Assembly (NCBI GenBank): GCA_934486965.1
Contig: CAKSQP010000001.1
Coordinates: 1-57,891 of the forward strand
Length of the DNA stretch: 57,891 nt
Direction: 5' to 3'
DNA from: an uncultured Eubacteriales bacterium
Lineage (GTDB): Bacteria > Bacillota > Clostridia > Oscillospirales > UBA644
Notes under the pieces: model-generated
The model's input: the letters and a program-made list of their open reading frames with translations, nothing else
What the model was told of the DNA's origin: nothing
Databases searched by the model: none
Part shown: piece by piece, positions 11,397-33,708 of the stretch
How the letters are laid out: each line of letters opens with the position of its first letter
How positions within the stretch are numbered: the stretch's first letter is position 1
Translations under genes and position numbers: made by a program

Positions 11397-13157
11397 ATGT
11401 TCAAGAGCATTACAGCCAAACTGACTTTGCTCTTTACCTGTCTTGCCGTTCTTATAGCCCTTATATCCGGACTTTCCTTTACCGCGCTTTACGGAAACCA
11501 CCTGCGCGAAGAGGAGAAAAAAGAAATGGAAAGCTGTGCGACGCAAGTTGCACAGCTTATTAAAAATGAGAACATGCTTGCGACCCTCGACCGCAAACTC
11601 CCGACGATAGGGTATATATCGCAGGCGACGGGCTATGATATATGGGTCTGCCATTCGACGGGTACGTTTTTCATAACGGGTTCGGCGACGAGCCCCTCAA
11701 GAACCGCGGACCTTTCGGGAAGCGCCGATTCCTTTGTAAAAGGAGTCCTTCAGGGATATTCCCGTATCGGCAACGATTTTTCGGACTATCTGAAGAGCGA
11801 CAGCCTTTCGGTCGGAGTTCCGATACTTTCACAGGCAAATTCCGACGGAAAGATCGCGGGTGCGGTGATCCTGCACGCGACCGAAAGCAGTTACGGCGCG
11901 TTTATCCGCACTTCGTGGCTGTATATCTTCGCAATGATAGTCGTTTCTCTGATTTTTTCGTTTGCAGTCGGTCTTATCTTCTCTTCGCAGTTTGTAAAAC
12001 CGCTTAAGGAAATTTCGACGGCGGCGGCGGAAATGTCGCACGGAAACTACGACGTCAGGGTCGGACACTTAAATCAGCCCGAACTCAATATGATAGGCGA
12101 CAGTATAAACAGCCTTGCCAGAACCACAAAAGACTCCGTTTCCGATATTTCGAACGAGACTGCGAAACTTTCGAACATAATCGAAAACATTTCGGACGGG
12201 CTCGCGGTCTACGACACAAACCTGAATCTCGTAAGATACAACGCCGCACTCCTGAATATCTGCGACGAAGACTATTTCCTGCGGGACGACGTAAGAAACG
12301 CGATGCTCGAAGTTATGGAGGACGGCAAAGCGCAGAACGTCACGATAGAGGTAAAGAACAAGATACTTTCTTTCACGATAACCCGGATAAAGAGCCTTGA
12401 AAAGGTCGAAGGAGTTATCGCCGTCGTAAGCGACATCACCGAAAGAGAAAGACTTGAACAGACAAGACGCGAATTCGTTTCGAACGTTTCGCACGAGTTC
12501 AGAACTCCGCTGACGATAATCAGAGGCGCGGTCGAACTCCTTATGGACGACGTTCTCGACAGCGAGGAAGCAAAAAAACAGTGCTATCAGAAGATAGACA
12601 CCGAATCGGCGGCGCTGACAAACCTTGTCAAAGACCTGCTCGACACCTCGCGTATGAAGTCGGGTAAAATAAAGATCGAACCGAGAGAAGTCGACCTCGA
12701 CGCTCTCGCGAAGACGATAACCGACAATATGCAGATGATCGCGTCAAACAAAAAGATAAGGATAAACTACGAGCCCGTAAGTATCCCGCCCGTCTGGGGC
12801 GACGAGGCAAGGCTCCGCCAACTTATGATAATCTTTATCGACAACGCGATAAAATTCACGCCCGAAAAAGGCACGATAACCGTTTCGATATATGCAAAAA
12901 ACAAAAAAGCGTATCTTTGCGTAAAGGATACCGGCTGCGGTATCCCGAAAGAAGATCAGCCGTATATTTTCGAAAGATTCTATAAGGTCGACAAAGCGCG
13001 CGGCGGCAGCGAAACGGGAACGGGCCTCGGACTTGCTATCGCATGGCAGATAGCGAAACTGCACAAGGGAACTATCCTTATCGAAAGCGAACCCGGTCAC
13101 GGCACGACTTTCAAAACGGTCCTTCCCCTCGCGGATAAAGAAGAGGACGAAGAATAA
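11397..13157 (+). CDS. Sensor histidine kinase (TM-HAMP-PAS-HisKA-HATPase)
   Basis: The 586-aa ORF has two transmembrane segments, the H-box SHEFRTPLT, and ATP-lid motifs DTGCGIP and GTGLGLAIA. It begins 3 nt after the response regulator gene. Confidence 0.9.
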   Translation: MFKSITAKLTLLFTCLAVLIALISGLSFTALYGNHLREEEKKEMESCATQVAQLIKNENMLATLDRKLPTIGYISQATGYDIWVCHSTGTFFITGSATSPSRTADLSGSADSFVKGVLQGYSRIGNDFSDYLKSDSLSVGVPILSQANSDGKIAGAVILHATESSYGAFIRTSWLYIFAMIVVSLIFSFAVGLIFSSQFVKPLKEISTAAAEMSHGNYDVRVGHLNQPELNMIGDSINSLARTTKDSVSDISNETAKLSNIIENISDGLAVYDTNLNLVRYNAALLNICDEDYFLRDDVRNAMLEVMEDGKAQNVTIEVKNKILSFTITRIKSLEKVEGVIAVVSDITERERLEQTRREFVSNVSHEFRTPLTIIRGAVELLMDDVLDSEEAKKQCYQKIDTESAALTNLVKDLLDTSRMKSGKIKIEPREVDLDALAKTITDNMQMIASNKKIRINYEPVSIPPVWGDEARLRQLMIIFIDNAIKFTPEKGTITVSIYAKNKKAYLCVKDTGCGIPKEDQPYIFERFYKVDKARGGSETGTGLGLAIAWQIAKLHKGTILIESEPGHGTTFKTVLPLADKEEDEE

Positions 13158-13249
13158 GGAGACCCGAAACGCAGATTTTGCGTTTTCCGGTGGAAACATT
13201 TGAAAAACCACCGTCCGAATGAAGTCGGTAGGTCTGATGAATAAAGTGT

Positions 13250-13285
13250 GAATGCGGAGTGTAATGCTCCGCATTCTTAATCTTG
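13250..13285 (+). terminator. Hairpin terminator after the histidine kinase gene
   Basis: A 10-bp stem pairs GAATGCGGAG (13250-13259) with CTCCGCATTC (13267-13276), followed by TTAATCTT. A weaker hairpin lies at 13167-13185. Confidence 0.5.
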
Positions 13286-13341
13286 ATGCAAAATAACTTC
13301 CTTTAAAATATACTCATTTTAATTTGTGGGGTGGGCAACAG

Positions 13342-14037
13342 ATGATATTATATTTTTCTGCGACAGGAAACTGTAAATACGTTGCAATGCGGCTCGTACA
13401 ATCCAAAGAACAGGAGATGCTTTCCATTGTGGATTGCATTCGAGAAAGCCGTTTTGCTTTTGAAGATGATATGATCGGCATTGTTTCTCCTACCTATGAT
13501 TGGGGACTGCCGAGCATTGTCCGAGAATTTTTGGAAAAGGCATCTTTTCGGACGGATTATCTGTATTTTGTTTCGACCTACGGAACAACCCCGGGTGCTA
13601 TCGGAGCGATGGCTGCAAAATCCGTTCACGGAAGAAAAATAGATGCTTCCACGCCTGAAAAGGTAGCGAAATTCACAAGAACAACAGAATCGGAAATCAA
13701 TGATTTGATTTGCGGTGTAAACGCCGGACGCATAAACCGGCACATGTCTCCCCGAACACCTGCATTCATCACAGAACTGATCGGAAAGCCTATTTACGAC
13801 AAGAAAGTTCGTCTTACTTCAAATTTTTATGTAGAGGACAGTTGTATCGGCTGCGGTCTGTGTGCGAAGAAATGCCCTGTATGTGCCATTGAAATACAAA
13901 ACAAGAAACCCAAATGGGTCAAAGACAAGTGCGTTATGTGCTTGGGGTGTTTGCATCGTTGTCCCGAATTTGCCATTCAATACGGCAAAAACACCAAGAA
14001 GCACGGACAGTACACAAATCCGAATGTTAAAATATAA
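13342..14037 (+). CDS. EFR1-type flavodoxin-like / 2x[4Fe-4S] ferredoxin fusion protein
   Basis: The start MILYFSATGNCKYVA is a flavodoxin-like N-terminus. The C-terminus has two ferredoxin motifs, CIGCGLCAKKCP and CVMCLGCLHRCP. The gene is visibly more AT-rich, with different codon choices from its neighbours. Confidence 0.8.
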   Translation: MILYFSATGNCKYVAMRLVQSKEQEMLSIVDCIRESRFAFEDDMIGIVSPTYDWGLPSIVREFLEKASFRTDYLYFVSTYGTTPGAIGAMAAKSVHGRKIDASTPEKVAKFTRTTESEINDLICGVNAGRINRHMSPRTPAFITELIGKPIYDKKVRLTSNFYVEDSCIGCGLCAKKCPVCAIEIQNKKPKWVKDKCVMCLGCLHRCPEFAIQYGKNTKKHGQYTNPNVKI

Positions 14038-14110
14038 ATTCCGGTTCTGCGGTATGATTATTTACTGAAATGCCGATTGATTATTGCCGATCGTGCTATA
14101 TACTATATTC

Positions 14111-14261
14111 TCATGGCAAAACTTTGGCAACAGAAAAGCAATAAACCAAAATAAAAACAGCGTAAAATAACGGCAGATTTCAACAAAACAGTTTAAGTTA
14201 AAGCAACAACTTTCCTATTTGGACAACTCAATAAGCGGCTGCGAAATTTGCAGCCGCTTAT
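14111..14261 (+). ncRNA. Candidate ~150-nt A/C-rich small RNA, or alternatively a long 3' UTR of the ferredoxin gene
   Basis: A possible promoter reads TTGATT (14077-14082), 16 nt, TATACT (14099-14104), with TG at 14094-14095. The downstream sequence is ORF-free, A/C-rich and ends in the 12-bp-stem hairpin at 14231-14261. No homology evidence is available. Confidence 0.25.
14231..14261. terminator. Strong hairpin at the left border of the C-rich tract
   Basis: ATAAGCGGCTGC (14231-14242) pairs with GCAGCCGCTTAT (14250-14261) around the loop GAAATTT. The T-tail is only modest on either strand. Confidence 0.5.
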
Positions 14262-14854
14262 CTCATTTCCGTTTCCCGCCCCCGCTCGACGACCCTCCTA
14301 TCCGTCCCCTGCAATCCCGCACTTTTCCCCTTATCCGCAATTGCCCCGCAACTCTACCCCACCTTTGGCTTTTTTATCCGTCGCCCGCAACACGCCCGCC
14401 TTTCATTTTTCCGCTTTGTTATCCCCCATATCCGCAATCGCCCCGCAGAACTCTCCTTATACACGGAAATCTCCCGCAGTGTTCCCCTTTCAGAGCGCCC
14501 CTCGCGGCCTCCTCTCCGCAGCCCACGCGTTCCCCTTTCCGCAGCCCTCGTCGGTCCTCTCTCCGCAGCCCGCATCGTTCCTCTCTCCGCAGCCCGCATT
14601 CCCGCACTCTTTATTCCCACCTGTTCGCCCTTTCCCCTACCCGCAGAAACGCCGCCTCGACACACACCTCTCCGCCCTCGCAGGAAAAACAGAGTTCGGC
14701 TTTTCCTCGCAATCCCGCACTTTTCCCGAGGTCGGGAACCATGCATTTTATCTCCCCGACACGCTCCGCACCACTCCGACACCCGCAATTTCGCGTTTTT
14801 TATTTCGCCGACACCCGAATTTCCGAATATCCCCCCCGATATCGGCAAAAAGTC
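14262..14854. other. Non-coding polypyrimidine, C-rich and G-poor tract with reiterated CCGCA motifs; function unknown
   Basis: In 14281-14340 I count 30 C against 7 G. CCGCA occurs 18 times between 14316 and 14790. Repeat details are in the findings. There is no RBS-preceded ORF. Confidence 0.6.
14555..14602. repeat. 24-nt tandem duplication inside the C-rich tract
   Basis: TCCTCTCTCCGCAGCCCGCATCGT (14555-14578) is followed by TCCTCTCTCCGCAGCCCGCATTCC (14579-14602). The first 21 nt are identical. A degenerate third copy lies at about 14505-14530. Confidence 0.85.
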
Positions 14855-14895
14855 AACCCGACAGGAAAAATTTCTCCTGTCGGGTTGTTGTTTTA
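14855..14895. terminator. Bidirectional intrinsic terminator (3' end of the surface-protein gene and right border of the C-rich tract)
   Basis: A 12-bp stem pairs AACCCGACAGGA (14855-14866) with TCCTGTCGGGTT (14875-14886). T-runs follow on both strands (GTTGTTTTATT on plus, GACTTTTTG on minus). Confidence 0.8.
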
Positions 14896-17172
14896 TTCTT
14901 TATTGTCGGAAGTCGGTTCTTCCTCGGTTATGTTTTCCGCCGTATTTTCTTCGCCCTTTATTTCAGGGGGGTCTTTCGGAGAAACGGGAACTTCGGGTTT
15001 GTCTTCCGCACTGCCCGCCGAGGTTTCTTCGGTTTTTTCTTCCGAAGAGGCGGGAACGGCGGGTTTTTCTTCCGCAACGCCCGCATTTACCGCGGGGTCT
15101 TCGGATTTTTCTTCCTCAATGCCCGTCTCTGCCGCGGTTTCTTCGGGTTTTTCGTTCACACAGCCCGTTTCTGTCCCGTGAGCCTCGGTTTTCGCCGCCT
15201 TATTTTTCTTTTTCATGCAGAGAAGAATTACAAGCGCGGAGATTCCGCCGCCGACAAGAAACGCCGCTGCGGGGATTATAATATAAAGGACGTTGAATCC
15301 GCCTTTGCCGTCCTTCGGGAAATCGCGACTGCCGTCCGGAGCAAAGGAAGAAGCCGTCTCGCCCGTCGATCCTGTCGCGGTAAGCGTTTCACTGCCGTTT
15401 ACAAGGAGCGAATATTCGCCGTTTTCCGCAATGTCGGAAGAGGAAAAGAAGACAAAACTTACATTGCAGGGCGCTTCCTCGGAAAACAGAGTGTTGCCCG
15501 AATAGTCGGTAACCGACATTGTTTCGCCCTTTGAAACGCCTGCGTTCTGTCCGCCGTTTCCTCCGGGGAAAGTCGGAGCGCCGCCGTCGGTCGCGCCGTC
15601 GGGAAGAGCGGGAGCATTTCCGTCAGACGAGCCGTCGGGAGGGGTCATATTGCCGTCGGAGGGCTTTTGCATTCCGCCGTTGCCGCCCTGTACGCCGTTA
15701 TTTCCGCCCTGTGTTCCGCTGTTGCCGCCTTTTGCGGTCTCGGCAAAGCCGCTGTCGGAAAGCGCCGCGCCCGTGTTGCTCTCACCCGAAGTATTATCCG
15801 AAGAATTTCCGTTCATATCGGGCGGGGTCGGTGTGCCGTTGCCGCCCTGTGTTCCGTTGTTGCCGTTCTGGGCGCCGTCGGGAGGAGTCATATTGCCGTC
15901 GGAGGGCTTTTGTATTCCGCCGTTGCCGCCCTGCACGCTGTTGTTGCTGCCCTGTGTTCCGCCGTTGCCGTTCTGAATGCTGTCAGAGGAATTTCCGCTC
16001 ATGTCGGGCGGAGTCGGCATATTTCCGCCGTTCGGCTGCATTCCGCCGCCGAAACCTCCCATGCCGCCCGAATTTCCGAAAATCAGATATCCCTGCGACG
16101 ACGAAAGGTTCATTCCCATGCCGCTGCTGCCGCCTGCAGCAAGGACAGTGCCGCCCGAAACGGTGATTTTCCCGTCCGAGTCAAGAGGCTGGTCGTCGGC
16201 GGTGTTCGCGGTCCAGACGGTGACGTTTCCGTCCGAAATATCAATGGTTCCGTTCGAATCAAAACCGTCGCCGCCCGAAGAATATGCCCAAATTTTTCCG
16301 CCCGAAATGTTTATCGCAAAGGAATAGTCGGAAAGTTCTTTATTTGCGGCGTTTATGCAATCGTCGGACGAATATACCGTGATATTTCCCGAATAAATGT
16401 TGACGGTCGCCGCCTCAAGTCCCTCTTCGCTTTCGGAAACTTTTATTGTCGGACCGTCGGTGTTTTCCGCGCCGACGTTCATTACATAATCGCAGTGAAT
16501 CCCTTTATCCTCGGCGGAAACGGTGATATTTCCGCTCAAAATGTTAAGTTCCTGTTCGGCGTTTATCGCGTCGTTTACGGTCGCCGAAACATTCAAGGTA
16601 AGGTCCTTTATTGTAAGAGACGCGTCGCCGTTGTCGTCAGAAAGTCCCGATTTTATGCCGTTTTTGCCGCTTGCGGCGACCGTAAGCGTGCCGCCGCCGC
16701 ACAAAACGACCTTTGAACCGTCCTTACATTTAATGACCGCGTTTTCGGCATTTTCGTTATCGGGATAGTTTTCGTCGTTGTTTTTTTCGGTGTCGGAAAG
16801 GAAGTTTTCGGTCCCCGCTGCCGCAATCACCGTAACTTCCGTGCCTTTTTTGCAGATTATTGCGGCGCTGTCTTCCGATTTAAGGGTGAGCCCCGACAGA
16901 ACTATCGTTACTCCCGTCGTTCCTTTATCGACGGTCACGCTGCCCGTTCCGCTGCCGGATAATATATAGGTACCCGACTTCGTTATTGTGATATTTGAGC
17001 CGTCAGACGAGCACCCGTCCCCCGAGACCGAAACGCCGTTTTCGGAAAATACGGCGGCCGTCGCCCCCTCTGCCGAATATTCCGCCGCAGAAAAAGAAAC
17101 GGGGAACAGTGTAAATAAGAATAGCGCCGCGACGATAAGTGCCGACAGGCGTAATTTTTTCGTTCTTTTCAT
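14893..17172 (-). CDS. Membrane-anchored surface protein with a Cthe_2159-like beta-helix carbohydrate-binding domain, a G/N/P-rich repeat linker, a C-terminal TM helix and an acidic tail
   Basis: The signal peptide is MKRTKKLRLSALIVAALFLFTLFPVSFSA. The segment ITITKSGTYILSGSGTGSVTVDKGTTGVTIVLSGLTL... is typical of the PF14262 'carbohydrate-binding domain-containing protein' family (my recollection). The TM helix is IIIPAAAFLVGGGISALVILLC. I chose the second ATG (17172) because of its spacing from the AAAGGA RBS. Confidence 0.8.
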   Translation of the reverse strand: MKRTKKLRLSALIVAALFLFTLFPVSFSAAEYSAEGATAAVFSENGVSVSGDGCSSDGSNITITKSGTYILSGSGTGSVTVDKGTTGVTIVLSGLTLKSEDSAAIICKKGTEVTVIAAAGTENFLSDTEKNNDENYPDNENAENAVIKCKDGSKVVLCGGGTLTVAASGKNGIKSGLSDDNGDASLTIKDLTLNVSATVNDAINAEQELNILSGNITVSAEDKGIHCDYVMNVGAENTDGPTIKVSESEEGLEAATVNIYSGNITVYSSDDCINAANKELSDYSFAINISGGKIWAYSSGGDGFDSNGTIDISDGNVTVWTANTADDQPLDSDGKITVSGGTVLAAGGSSGMGMNLSSSQGYLIFGNSGGMGGFGGGMQPNGGNMPTPPDMSGNSSDSIQNGNGGTQGSNNSVQGGNGGIQKPSDGNMTPPDGAQNGNNGTQGGNGTPTPPDMNGNSSDNTSGESNTGAALSDSGFAETAKGGNSGTQGGNNGVQGGNGGMQKPSDGNMTPPDGSSDGNAPALPDGATDGGAPTFPGGNGGQNAGVSKGETMSVTDYSGNTLFSEEAPCNVSFVFFSSSDIAENGEYSLLVNGSETLTATGSTGETASSFAPDGSRDFPKDGKGGFNVLYIIIPAAAFLVGGGISALVILLCMKKKNKAAKTEAHGTETGCVNEKPEETAAETGIEEEKSEDPAVNAGVAEEKPAVPASSEEKTEETSAGSAEDKPEVPVSPKDPPEIKGEENTAENITEEEPTSDNKE
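15631..15973 (-). repeat. In-frame ~100-bp direct repeat (period 243 bp, 81 codons) within the surface-protein gene
   Basis: Segments 15631-15730 and 15874-15973 are about 90% identical (GCCGTCGGGAGG(G/A)GTCATATTGCCGTCGGAGGGCTTTTG(C/T)ATTCCGCCGTTGCCGCCCTG...). They encode the repeated QGGNGG(I/M)QKPSDGNMTPPDG units. Confidence 0.85.
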
Positions 17173-17256
17173 AAATATCATTCCTTTCGCGTCGGTCTTT
17201 CCCGACTTCTGCGAAAAGTATAGCGCCCGAACCTTAAACGAACTTAAAGGAAAATC

Positions 17257-17276
17257 TTTAGGTTCGGTTTAGGTTC
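17257..17276 (+). promoter_or_regulatory. Direct repeat TTTAGGTTC-N2-TTTAGGTTC (11-bp period); candidate OmpR-family response-regulator binding site
   Basis: Exact 9-mers lie at 17257-17265 and 17268-17276, about 35 nt upstream of the VTC-like gene. An inverted, near-identical copy GAACCTTAAA lies at 17229-17238. Confidence 0.4.
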
Positions 17277-33033: not shown

Positions 33034-33708
33034 TTATTCTTCGGAAAGCGCTTCTTTGGCGAGCAAATCGGCATATTCATTGAGTGGCACTCCGCTGTGG
33101 CCCTCGACCTTGACGAACTTTATATCCATATAAGGGCGGAATTTATCCATGAATTCAAGATAGTGCCTTGCACAGAAACTCTGCGCTTTCCATTTATGCT
33201 CATACCATTTTGAAATTCCGTAATAGTCGTGATATATCGTTATATCCCTTATTCCGTCCGCGGCTGTCGTCTTGACGGCAAACATCGCCGCCTGCAGTTC
33301 CCCTGCGACGTTTCTTGCCTCCGCCGCCTCCGGTCTCATGCCCCACGCGCGGTGAGTCGTGACGTTTCCGCTTTTTATAAGGATACAGCCGTAGGAATAT
33401 CTGCGGCGTTCGGCGTCGTAACTTCCGTCGATATACGCTATCATCTTCCCCTGCGGGATTTCGTTTGAAAGATTTTCCGCAACGGTATTGTAATCCGCAA
33501 TTTTTTCCGCTTTCGACCTGCGTTTTTTCGCGGGTCTTTCTTTTTCGGTAAAAGTCTGCGCCAGATAGTCTTCGGCGTCTTTCATATTGTCGAAACTTTT
33601 ATATTCCGCGTCCTTAAAGCCGACGACCTGATCCTTGCACTCTTCCCAATGCCTGAATATTCCTGTTTTTCTGCCGTTTCTAACGGCGTAATACCGCAAT
33701 TTTGCCAT
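33034..33708 (-). CDS. rnhA: Ribonuclease HI with an N-terminal RNA-DNA hybrid-binding (caulimovirus-VI-like) domain
   Basis: The N-terminus YYAVRNGRKTGIFRHWEECKDQVVGFKDAEYKSF is the hybrid-binding domain. The RNase H core has candidate DEDD residues (AYIDGSY, AGELQA, IYHDYYG, NEYADLLAK). Confidence 0.85.
   Translation of the reverse strand: MAKLRYYAVRNGRKTGIFRHWEECKDQVVGFKDAEYKSFDNMKDAEDYLAQTFTEKERPAKKRRSKAEKIADYNTVAENLSNEIPQGKMIAYIDGSYDAERRRYSYGCILIKSGNVTTHRAWGMRPEAAEARNVAGELQAAMFAVKTTAADGIRDITIYHDYYGISKWYEHKWKAQSFCARHYLEFMDKFRPYMDIKFVKVEGHSGVPLNEYADLLAKEALSEE

Follow-up and report, generated by a model that had tools for sequence, protein, structure and literature searches.

A length-variable, C-rich tract between two convergent genes of uncultured gut Oscillospiraceae

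Results and discussion

The tract and its neighboring genes

The window, that is, the whole 57.9-kb stretch of DNA analyzed here, carries a strongly strand-asymmetric tract between two convergent genes. To the right of the tract lies a gene for a Cthe_2159-domain surface protein (14893..17181, minus strand; Pfam PF14262, E 9e-43), whose product combines a low-complexity region with a transmembrane segment and an acidic tail. To its left lies a histidine-kinase operon, from which it is separated by an insertion (13158..14230, plus strand) that lies after the kinase stop codon and before the left border hairpin of the tract. This insertion is specific to the lineage of the window, is absent from all syntenic relatives, and carries an EFR1-type flavodoxin/ferredoxin gene (13324-14037, plus strand). 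Homologues of the ferredoxin gene found elsewhere reside in unrelated, non-syntenic contexts, and the tract is absent beside all of them; following synteny through this gene was a dead end, as it is a lineage-specific insertion. Two two-component systems flank the locus. Judged by the list of open reading frames alone, the gap at 14038-14892 is the largest non-coding one in the window, in agreement with the sequence-only reading of this DNA that we followed up here.

Composition and strand asymmetry

Over its 589 nt (14262-14850), the plus strand of the tract contains 258 C (44%), 147 T, 94 A and 90 G (15%). GC skew ranges from -0.31 to -0.56 in every 100-nt window between 14200 and 14850, and the median excess of C over G per 78-nt window of the tract is 22, a value attained by only 7e-5 of the windows elsewhere in the 57.9 kb, on either strand. 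YC dimers occupy 177 of the 588 positions. Sliding-window skew and base counts thus bear out the description of the region as C-rich and G-poor, and the count of 30 C against 7 G given for 14281-14340 is exact. Two of the terms used at that stage were overstated: there is an excess of pyrimidines, but 'polypyrimidine' is too strong for a pyrimidine content of 69%, and 'almost devoid of G' is likewise too strong for a strand that is G-poor, with 15% G.

Border hairpins and promoter-like sequences

The tract had been described as bounded by two hairpins, and both are present. The left one (14231..14261), with 15-nt arms at 14231-14245 and 14247-14261, corresponds by orthology to the terminator located after the histidine-kinase operon in the relatives. 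Its T-run in the window is too poor for the terminator scan, whereas its orthologue is terminator-like on both strands in relative L048 and, in L133, on the counterpart of the window plus strand. The right one (14854..14887) is a predicted bidirectional intrinsic terminator, terminator-like on both strands, that would serve the Cthe_2159 gene on the minus strand as well as any plus-strand read-through. Its stem is kept in seven relatives, with one compensatory GC-to-AU pair, and it separates the tract from the Cthe_2159 gene in every relative. The idea that the units of the tract are decayed half-terminators was discarded, as in four genomes no match scored higher than the 99th percentile of shuffles; the exception is a 13-nt duplicate of the 3' half of the left terminator in L048.

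A promoter-like sequence, TTGACT-N19-GATATT (14823..14856, minus strand), would read into the tract on the G-rich strand, and it is not conserved. In L133, the site has a TG extension and a spacer of 18 nt, and scores 9/12; similar sites exist in the window, L047 and L137, but L131, L132 and L050 have lost the -35 or the -10 element, and the -35 element coincides with the end of the terminator stem. Scans of the window, L048 and L133 gave no promoter-like site on the plus strand inside the tract, and no conserved promoter on either strand. In the alignment of the relatives, no RNA structure is conserved beyond the terminator, and covariation is absent from the rest of the tract.

Coding potential and known RNA families

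Long stop-free frames exist on both strands of the tract, and had been dismissed as artefacts of composition. Our results uphold this view: the tract is non-coding. Searches of the long ORFs with Pfam and NCBIfam identified no family, the single sub-threshold NCBIfam match (E 0.047, 13.6 bits against a cut-off of 196 bits) lying outside the tract, and a phmmer search with the translation of one plus frame returned 0 matches among 1.84 billion protein representatives. The best-looking candidate, a minus-strand ORF preceded by an RBS-like GGGGAG-N5-ATG, is interrupted by a stop at codon 25 in L047, the closest relative, and the indels that distinguish L047 from the window are not multiples of three.

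The same data bear on whether the tract is a decayed gene, either for a Pro-rich or Arg/Gly-rich repeat protein or for an older and longer Cthe_2159 tail. Besides the stop-free frames, what speaks for such an origin is the density of CCGCA in the repeats coding for the Cthe_2159 tail, 8 per kb compared with 2 per kb for the remainder of the window. We nevertheless consider it largely refuted, given the lack of family and protein matches, the frameshifting indels and premature stop in the closest relative, and the terminator that lies between the tract and the gene in every relative. An origin from the tail repeats was also rejected on the basis of local alignment, in which the similarity of tract and tail is at the level of shuffles (z 0.9); the comparison with the low-complexity part of the Cthe_2159 gene is marginal (z 3.2, with a score of 31 against a shuffle maximum of 32).

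Known RNA families were not recovered either. Rfam gave nothing at gathering score in the whole window, and no tract-like family at E<=10 in 13900-15100, where the best matches were miRNA and snoRNA models and terminator-only matches. The suggestion of a giant small RNA of the RsaE/RoxS type can point to real likenesses, namely several CCC/CCCC motifs on one strand and an intrinsic terminator at the end, but did not hold. The tract has no match to the RsaE/RoxS covariance model or to any other in Rfam, no C-motifs in conserved loops and no hairpins presenting C-runs, only the terminator hairpin being conserved; it has no conserved promoter, let alone one of its own at a fixed distance from the terminator; and its length varies three-fold, from 204 to 596 nt. 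The tract is not a member of this family. Nor is it a CRISPR array: its repeats are irregularly spaced and 66-92% identical, and a Pfam scan of the first 34 kb of the window revealed no cas genes.

Repeats, modules and the CCGCA motif

Several direct-repeat families, of two to four copies each, are found in the tract; they are irregularly spaced, with 66-92% identity, and most of their units are degenerate. Distances between CCC runs cluster at 13-17 and 29-33 nt and point to a period of about 31 nt. Inverted repeats in the region are limited to the two border hairpins and one weak, distant pair. Both of the repeats singled out in the sequence-only reading are real: the 24-nt unit CGTTCCTCTCTCCGCAGCCCGCAT forms a plus-strand tandem array of about four copies (14499..14602), and the 19-mer GCAATCCCGCACTTTTCCC occurs in two exact plus-strand copies (14311-14329 and 14709..14727).

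On a larger scale, the tract can be divided into blocks, all given here on the plus strand. The leftmost (14262..14398) is an expansion specific to the lineage of the window, composed of CCGCA-bearing modules and including one copy of the 19-mer and one of CCCCWTATCCGCAATYGCCCCGCA; repeat families D1, D4, D5 and D9 tie it to copies further downstream. It is missing from the 205-nt version of L133/L137, as a 142-nt gap event after the left terminator. The adjacent block (14399..14447), with a T-run, TTGTTATMCCCC and TCCGCAATC, resembles by eye the start of this short version, a pairing that alignment A2 does not reproduce: A2 puts the L133/L137 start further right, at about 14611-14660 of the window, and leaves the position of the 142-nt gap unsettled. 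At the other end, a right core (14739..14853; alignments A2 and A3), containing two CCGACACCCG(C)AATTT direct repeats and an A-run preceding the right terminator, is the only part of the tract that can be aligned across all three lineages. Identity in this core of about 110 nt is 0.80-0.88 between species, while the 4-fold sites of the neighboring genes reach 0.67-0.78; among strains of one species, the core is no more conserved than these sites.

The motif CCGCA occurs 18 times in the tract (14317-14783), as had been counted, and the shuffling check proposed at the time confirms its enrichment: dinucleotide-preserving shuffles of the tract contain 2.3±1.45 copies, with a maximum of seven, so that the excess is about eight-fold. 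Orientation is strict, 18 to 0, as TGCGG is absent from the tract; outside it, CCGCA and TGCGG occur 116 and 109 times, without strand skew. The copies have no dominant spacing and are flanked by many different contexts, with two pairs placed 11 nt apart as CCGCA-N6-CCGCA (14335/14346 and 14432/14443). Most of them, 14 of the 18, belong to recent duplicate families, that is, recognizable duplicated modules, and the 24-nt tandem array alone accounts for seven. By our own count from the repeat families, CCGCA is still several-fold enriched once recent duplicates are collapsed. Possible resemblances to the DnaA box (TTATCCGCA against TTATCCACA; no replication genes lie nearby), the Spo0A box (TGTCGAA), the CodY box, the Haemophilus uptake sequence (AAGTGCGGT) and the B. 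subtilis Chi site (AGCGG) were set aside; a 5-mer as common as CCGCA is outside the tract needs no array to account for it.

Distribution and length variation among relatives

Syntenic relatives that carry the tract (L047/L138, L048-L050, L131, L132 and L133-L137) form a narrow clade of three species-level lineages of related uncultured gut Oscillospiraceae. In all of them its location is the same, between the 3' ends of the histidine-kinase operon and the Cthe_2159 gene. About 80 more distant Cthe_2159 homologues have no such tract downstream, and no second copy was found in the window or in about 1 Mb of loci searched. Its modules have no match in plasmid or phage records, and a single 21-nt exact pattern taken from it found nothing in viral contigs.

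The distance between the two terminators differs greatly among variants, being 596, 561, 495, 344, 299, 205 and 204 nt, with 18, 9, 8, 8, 5, 2 and 3 copies of CCGCA, respectively. Tracts of 561, 495, 344 and 299 nt belong to strains whose kinase genes are 97.7-99.5% identical in nucleotide sequence, and whose 122-nt non-coding left flank, counted without four loop bases of the left terminator, shows one to three differences; length variation begins directly after the stem of the left hairpin. Within species, indels of the tract measure 13 to 220 nt, and a gap-tolerant alignment gives 86-94% identity for the aligned segments. This pattern of few large indels replaces our first estimate of 15-25% within-species point divergence, an artefact that arose because MAFFT aligned non-orthologous modules. 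Identical variants were recovered in independent assemblies (L048 and L049; L133 and L135).

The indels among strains sit at direct repeats of 3 to 13 nt. The largest, of 220 nt between L048 and L050, has a 13-nt junction microhomology (ACAGCCGCTTTTC); the microhomology is TCCCC for an indel of 109 nt, CTCC for one of about 130 nt (gap events of 129 and 6 nt), and CCT for one of 13 nt. The tract thus shows the features that define intergenic variable-number tandem repeats (VNTRs): head-to-tail units, and length polymorphism between close strains with conserved flanks.

A minisatellite-like spacer as the probable origin

From these comparisons, the tract is probably a non-coding, minisatellite-like spacer between terminators, one that changes by slippage or illegitimate recombination. 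It would occupy the interval that separates the intrinsic terminators of two transcription units running toward each other, the response-regulator/histidine-kinase operon, extended here by the inserted ferredoxin gene, and the Cthe_2159 surface-protein gene. It would be built from degenerate units punctuated by C-runs, with the period of about 31 nt, and from larger modules, and short direct repeats, CCGC(A), CTCC, TCCCC or ACAGCCGCTTTTC for example, would be the places where modules are duplicated or deleted. Restriction to one clade, variability in length, microhomology at junctions and lack of a conserved promoter or structure are observed; slippage as the mechanism, and the absence of a sequence-specific function, are what we infer. 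The C-rich composition and CCGCA were probably amplified along with the modules, and the 18-copy 'array' is therefore mainly a by-product of expansion in the lineage of the window rather than a set of conserved binding sites; that the count falls to two or three in the shortest version likewise points to a product of amplification. CCGCA could be both substrate and product of slippage, two roles that the data do not separate. Nothing here shows the tract to be an RNA gene or a conserved protein-binding array, and any effect of the tract would be expected from its composition rather than from its sequence: a plus-strand RNA escaping the left terminator would be an ideal substrate for Rho before it runs antisense into the surface-protein gene. 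Some observations count against a mere spacer. Three lineages that are about 30% diverged at 4-fold sites have all kept a tract of 205 nt or more whose strands are asymmetric in the same sense, which hints at selection on length or composition. The between-species conservation of the right core and the enrichment of CCGCA that survives the collapsing of duplicates also belong on this side.

The closest likeness is to intergenic VNTRs and minisatellites such as the mycobacterial MIRU (review PMC3184786), which are also non-coding and intergenic, consist of degenerate units, each tens of nucleotides long, joined head to tail, and differ in copy number or length between close strains through slippage or unequal recombination. 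The tract departs from them in its far more degenerate units, which belong to several module types arranged as a mosaic, in its extreme strand composition (C/G about 3), and in being known at one locus, placed exactly between two terminators, with no small ORFs over its units.

Alternative explanations

The hint of selection leads to a reading in which composition alone is selected to keep the tract C-rich, G-poor and unstructured, so that Rho loads on plus-strand read-through and releases transcripts before they enter the surface-protein gene in antisense, sequence and length being free to change provided that the C>G bubble persists. We regard such a role, the only plausible one that we see for the tract, as rather unlikely. 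The tract is the most extreme C>G region of the window, and its C/G ratio is 2.6-3.4 in all seven variants, whatever their length and despite the turnover of modules. Bacterial genomes tend to delete useless DNA, and the spacer persists despite this general bias. Its predicted plus-strand RNA is C-rich, G-poor and YC-rich, as a rut region should be, and its folds are weak in absolute terms (MFE of -0.06 to -0.18 kcal/mol per nt in the seven variants). In the window, the fold is weaker than in 100 of 100 shuffles, but the relatives show no such deficit of structure compared with shuffles (z -0.4 to +0.6 for five of the seven): stable structure is scarce without being consistently scarcer than in shuffles. 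The sequence-only proposal of a rut region thus stands as to composition and weak structure. Rut sites mapped in B. subtilis have a similar profile, being pyrimidine-rich, G-poor, unstructured and, for about 80% of them, antisense to genes (PMC12350095), as read-through of the tract would be; these sites, however, are about 100 nt long and non-repeat, whereas the tract is two to six times longer (204-596 nt), repetitive and enclosed by intrinsic terminators. Rho has also been reported to act as a back-up for leaky intrinsic terminators (bioRxiv 10.1101/2022.07.21.500918), a role that the poor T-run of the left hairpin in the window would suit, but the same hairpin is a canonical terminator in L048 and L133, and as a second terminator working on the plus strand closes the tract, it is not evident why a third safeguard would be needed. 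Inherited composition, moreover, explains the skew without selection. No rho gene is present among the approximately 30 window ORFs, up to about 34 kb, that were scanned with Pfam.

Attention may equally be turned to the G-rich minus strand, which could be transcribed by read-through from the Cthe_2159 gene or from the TTGACT-N18/19-GATATT site; R-loops or G-quadruplexes would then stall polymerases and destabilize the locus, or the RNA would serve as a G-rich sponge. We hold this to be improbable. The complement of 14616-14642 does read G3-N2-G4-N3-G3-N9-G3, as had been pointed out, and G4Hunter, which scores propensity only, reaches an absolute value of at least 1.2 in 115 of the 565 25-nt windows of the tract, and of at least 1.5 in 18, the corresponding shares for the window as a whole being 0.37% and 0.05%. 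In every relative, the minus strand folds a little more stably than its shuffles do (z -1.2 to -4.9), and instability in length would fit a structure-prone region. The canonical motif of four runs of at least three G with loops of 1-7 nt is absent from the tract, only two motifs being found with loops of up to 12 nt. The promoter-like site is present in some relatives and lost in others, and overlaps the terminator stem; the minus-strand T-run of the left hairpin is weak in the window; no structure shows covariation; and the microhomology at indel junctions is plain, requiring no special structure. A still more speculative variant, to which we assign a very low probability and of which the Rho-loading role would be the milder form, is a functional element defined by its strand composition and kept G-rich on the strand of the surface-protein gene. 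Low-level transcription, by read-through or from the terminator-overlapping site, would produce a G-rich RNA and leave a C-rich template, and the resulting R-loops or quadruplexes would block converging polymerases and make the locus generate its own length variation, loosely like an immunoglobulin switch region.

Sequence-specific readings fare no better. The tract had been proposed to be an array of binding sites for a protein. In this reading, YCCGCA (TGCGGR) would be recognized by a protein that binds DNA or RNA, for which an OmpR-type response regulator from the neighboring genes and a nucleoid-associated protein are candidates, and the array would act in titration or as an organizing site. 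Enrichment, strict co-orientation and varied flanking contexts of CCGCA argue for it, as do the two-component systems on either side and the pairs placed 11 nt apart, a spacing used by winged-helix dimers. The data nevertheless disfavor such an array, and we give it little credence: the number of copies tracks the length of the tract, down to the two or three of L133/L137, most copies lie in duplicated modules, no spacing dominates, and both genes turn their 3' ends to the tract, near which no conserved promoter lies. In addition, the Cthe_2159/VTC promoter has an evident regulator site of a different kind, TTAGGTTC-N3-TTAGGTTC, a motif unrelated to CCGCA. An analogy can also be drawn with the neisserial intergenic mosaic elements (NIME), whose units are bounded by 20-bp inverted repeats. 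These dRS3/RS arrays are non-coding, lie beside variable surface-protein genes, and differ in repeat number and length between strains at syntenic positions amid conserved genes (PMC1797815); by comparison, the repeats of the tract might favor allele exchange of the adjoining gene. The Cthe_2159 protein is indeed more variable among relatives (69-86% identity) than the kinase (92-99.8%), and L050 carries a divergent N-terminal allele (4-fold identity of 0.78, against 0.92-0.98 around it). In this one clear allele replacement, however, the 3' breakpoint lies inside the gene, outside the tract, and the tail on the tract side is 0.98-1.00 identical at 4-fold sites. The tract flanks only one side of the gene; unlike for NIME, which are dispersed in arrays throughout the chromosome (PMC1797815), no dispersed copies were found in about 1 Mb of sequence, including 58 kb of the same genome; and its units are neither palindromic nor bounded by inverted repeats, as those of NIME, BIME/REP and BOX are. 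We consider a recombination-promoting array very unlikely.

Implications of the tract

At present, the tract is a curiosity: a single-locus, strongly strand-asymmetric and length-hypervariable spacer in uncultured gut Oscillospiraceae. Its hypervariability in length within species and its restriction to one small clade lie beyond a sequence-only view of a single genome. If its composition is under selection, the tract would offer a clean natural case of a non-coding function that tolerates complete sequence turnover, with Rho loading or R-loop formation as candidate functions, and it would be useful for studying the evolution of Rho substrates in Firmicutes. If it is not, the tract would illustrate that a designed-looking motif 'array', with 18 co-oriented copies of CCGCA, can arise from the amplification of modules alone. 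In either case, it could mark strains of the clade in metagenomes. Short-read contigs break inside the tract, which makes it a practical nuisance as well.

Length variation of the C-rich spacer

The C-rich tract at 14262-14850 is a lineage-restricted, non-coding, strand-asymmetric spacer of hypervariable length between two terminators, and is best described as a minisatellite-like locus. It belongs to a known class, the variable intergenic repeat loci, within which it is unusual for its C/G ratio of approximately 3 and for being known from a single locus. Its evolution would have proceeded by slippage or by illegitimate recombination at short direct repeats; if it has a function, this probably depends on composition and not on sequence.

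The distance between the two terminators was 596 nt in the window, with 18 copies of CCGCA. Among homologous loci fetched from related genomes (designated by L numbers), it was 561 nt in L048 (9 copies), 495 nt in L131 (8), 344 nt in L132 (8), 299 nt in L050 (5), 205 nt in L133 (2) and 204 nt in L137 (3); C/G lay between 2.6 and 3.4 in all seven length variants. An alignment of the spacer region within the L048 species (A1) showed that a 122-nt stretch, running from the kinase stop codon to the end of the left terminator, is nearly invariant and that the right terminator is kept, the whole interval between them being rearranged. When gaps were tolerated, the aligned tract segments were 86-94% identical, approximately the same divergence as at the 4-fold sites of neighboring genes (identity 0.89-0.99); an earlier value of 15-25% point divergence within species was inflated by misaligned modules and is withdrawn. 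The main differences between tracts are a few indels of 13-220 nt. The 220-nt indel separating L048 from L050 has as junction repeat ACAGCCGCTTTTC, a copy of the 3' half of the left terminator, and those of 109, approximately 130 and 13 nt have TCCCC, CTCC and CCT, respectively. A module of approximately 85 nt is present in two copies in L131, one of which is found in L048 and the other in L050; its 'moved' position is thus accounted for by the loss of different copies from an ancestor that had both.

This length variation is unlikely to be an assembly artefact, because the repeats at the junctions are probably shorter than the k-mers that assemblers commonly use and because identical variants recur in independent assemblies (L048 and L049; L133 and L135). 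Two independent contigs end inside the tract (L047 at 3617 and L138 at 3982, equivalent to window positions 14636 and 14752), which suggests that its repeats or composition break short-read assemblies. Between identical stems, the left terminator has the loop AAAA in L048 (8736-8739) and TTTT in L050, L131 and L132, three strains of the same species (A1 columns 105-108), and this suggests a hairpin-loop flip that may have arisen by template switching within the hairpin.

Distribution and genomic setting

The window comes from an ENA metagenome scaffold and is ordinary chromosomal sequence from an uncultured gut bacterium that resembles Oscillospiraceae; among named relatives, Dysosmobacter and 'Eubacteriales' MAGs come closest. 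Genes for FtsK, a radical-SAM protein, an OmpR-type regulator, a PAS/HAMP histidine kinase (ending at 13157) and an EFR1-type flavodoxin/ferredoxin (13324-14037) lie upstream of the tract on the plus strand. The adjoining downstream gene, on the minus strand, encodes a Cthe_2159-domain surface protein of 762 aa with a low-complexity region, a transmembrane segment and an acidic tail, so that the tract is placed between the 3' ends of convergent genes. Genes for VTC, DUF4956 and a second two-component system follow on the plus strand.

Syntenic loci were obtained through homologues of the surface protein. Their order is the kinase stop codon, approximately 70-120 nt, the left terminator, the C-rich tract, the right terminator and the surface-protein gene. 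Three lineages carry the tract: the window with L047 and L138; L048, L049, L050, L131 and L132, whose kinase genes share 97.7-99.5% identity among themselves and 93-94% with that of the window; and L133-L137, with kinase genes 87-88% identical to that of the window. No skewed region was found downstream of approximately 80 more distant metagenome homologues (at most 65% identity in the N-terminal domain), and at the single distant locus inspected, L058, the neighboring genes differ. On the evidence available, a dispersed repeat is unlikely: neither the window, nor approximately 1 Mb of fetched loci, nor plasmid and phage records contained another copy, and one exact 21-nt tract pattern had no match in viral contigs.

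Homologues of the ferredoxin gene (at most 84% identity) occur in unrelated contexts with no tract, and the gene is a lineage-specific insertion. The insert (13158-14230) comprises this gene, two upstream hairpins and an AT-rich tail, and is flanked on both sides by the string TTTCC; in all syntenic relatives, which lack it, the left terminator follows the kinase stop codon almost directly.

Composition and CCGCA content

The plus strand of the tract contains 258 C, 147 T, 94 A and 90 G, and its GC skew ranges from -0.31 to -0.56 in all 100-nt windows. In 78-nt windows, the median of C minus G is 22 inside the tract, a value reached or exceeded in only 7e-5 of the other windows of the 57.9-kb sequence, both strands considered. 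The C-rich, G-poor character noticed in the sequence-only reading is thus borne out, but 'almost devoid of G' and 'polypyrimidine' were too strong, as G makes up 15% and pyrimidines 69%. The structural elements of that reading were all recovered: the left hairpin (14231-14261), the bidirectional terminator (14854-14887), the 24-nt tandem array (approximately four copies, 14499-14602) and the exact 19-nt repeat at 14311 and 14709.

The excess of CCGCA also withstood testing, with 18 copies between 14317 and 14783 against 2.3±1.45 (maximum 7) in 2000 dinucleotide-preserving shuffles; the tract contains no TGCGG. Across relatives, no 5-mer is more over-represented than CCGCA; GACAC, CGCAG and ATATC come next. 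The contexts flanking YCCGCA(R) are varied. An array of protein-binding sites, as had been proposed, is unlikely. We read CCGCA as probably both fuel for and product of slippage, rather than as a conserved set of binding sites, because its number is not kept among relatives (2-3 in the shortest version of the tract), 14 of the 18 window copies lie within recognizable recent duplicates (the 24-nt array, the CCCCWTATCCGCAATYGCCCCGCA pair and the 19-mer family), no spacing dominates, and CCGC-type strings are microhomologies at some indel sites.

The Cthe_2159 gene and the VTC/DUF4956 genes diverge from a 105-nt promoter region, in which a different direct repeat, TTAGGTTC-N3-TTAGGTTC (17258-17276, 11-bp spacing), has an inverted GAACCTTAA on its upstream side. 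This repeat differs in sequence from CCGCA and is probably a site of the adjacent OmpR-family regulator.

Coding potential, RNA and promoters

The tract had been taken as non-coding, and this view holds. Its ORFs belong to no Pfam or NCBIfam family, a plus-frame translation matched none of 1.84 billion representative proteins, and the window and L047 differ by frame-shifting indels. The sole minus-strand ORF with a plausible ribosome-binding site (GGGGAG-N5-ATG, 14744-14757) begins a frame of 130 codons, rich in Arg and Gly, on the G-rich strand; it meets a stop at codon 25 in L047 and is therefore a composition artefact, not a gene. Similarity to the repeats encoding the Cthe_2159 tail was no better than in shuffles (z 0.9).

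A known RNA was rejected, as Rfam gave no match even at E<=10, and so was a structured RNA, since conserved base pairing, whichever strand is considered, is confined to the right terminator, which shows a single compensatory pair. To judge from its sequence, the tract is not an independent transcription unit either, no promoter-like site being conserved: TTGACT-N18/19-GATATT is directed into the G-rich strand in the window, L047, L133 and L137 and is lost in L131, L132 and L050, and its -35 element coincides with the end of the terminator stem.

Candidate functions

The conserved property of the tract is its composition. Across approximately 30% synonymous divergence, a spacer has been retained that measures at least 205 nt and keeps its strand asymmetry, and the right-hand 110 nt or so, a core that includes the A-run required by the terminator, are 0.80-0.88 identical between species versus 0.67-0.78 at 4-fold sites; together these argue for some constraint on the tract. 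The predicted plus-strand RNA is C-rich, G-poor and nearly unstructured, the very profile of the Rut sites mapped in Bacillus subtilis, which measure approximately 100 nt and for the most part lie antisense to genes (PMC12350095). The tract could thus be a putative 'landing zone' for Rho, where read-through would be halted before it runs antisense into the surface-protein gene. We consider this unlikely, because the L048 and L133 tracts are already bounded by canonical terminators, because its length is several times what such a role requires, and because inheritance of a C-rich founder unit accounts for the skew without selection; doubtful as it is, it would be the most plausible of the functions considered.

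R-loops or G-quadruplexes on the G-rich strand have little support: the quadruplex-prone minus strand of the sequence-only reading does score high with G4Hunter, but contains no canonical quadruplex motif. An RNase HI gene with an N-terminal hybrid-binding domain (33034-33708, minus strand; PF01693 and PF00075) is mentioned solely because R-loop processing would matter to this alternative. A NIME-like role in recombination (PMC1797815) would be attractive, given that the adjacent surface protein is highly variable and that its N-terminal allele was replaced in L050; this replacement, however, ends inside the gene and not in the tract.

The divergent allele of the Cthe_2159 N-terminal domain in L050 emerges from a comparison of L050 6001-8160 with L048 6001-8127. 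Identity at 4-fold sites between the two is 0.78 in this domain and 0.92-0.98 in the gene tail and all flanking genes, which indicates that recombination replaced the allele, one breakpoint lying close to the start of the gene and the other in its low-complexity repeats. The segment encoding the acidic cytoplasmic tail contains a 42-nt tandem repeat of approximately 2.5 copies (15060-15173), and the length of the protein ranges from 668 to 762 aa among close relatives.
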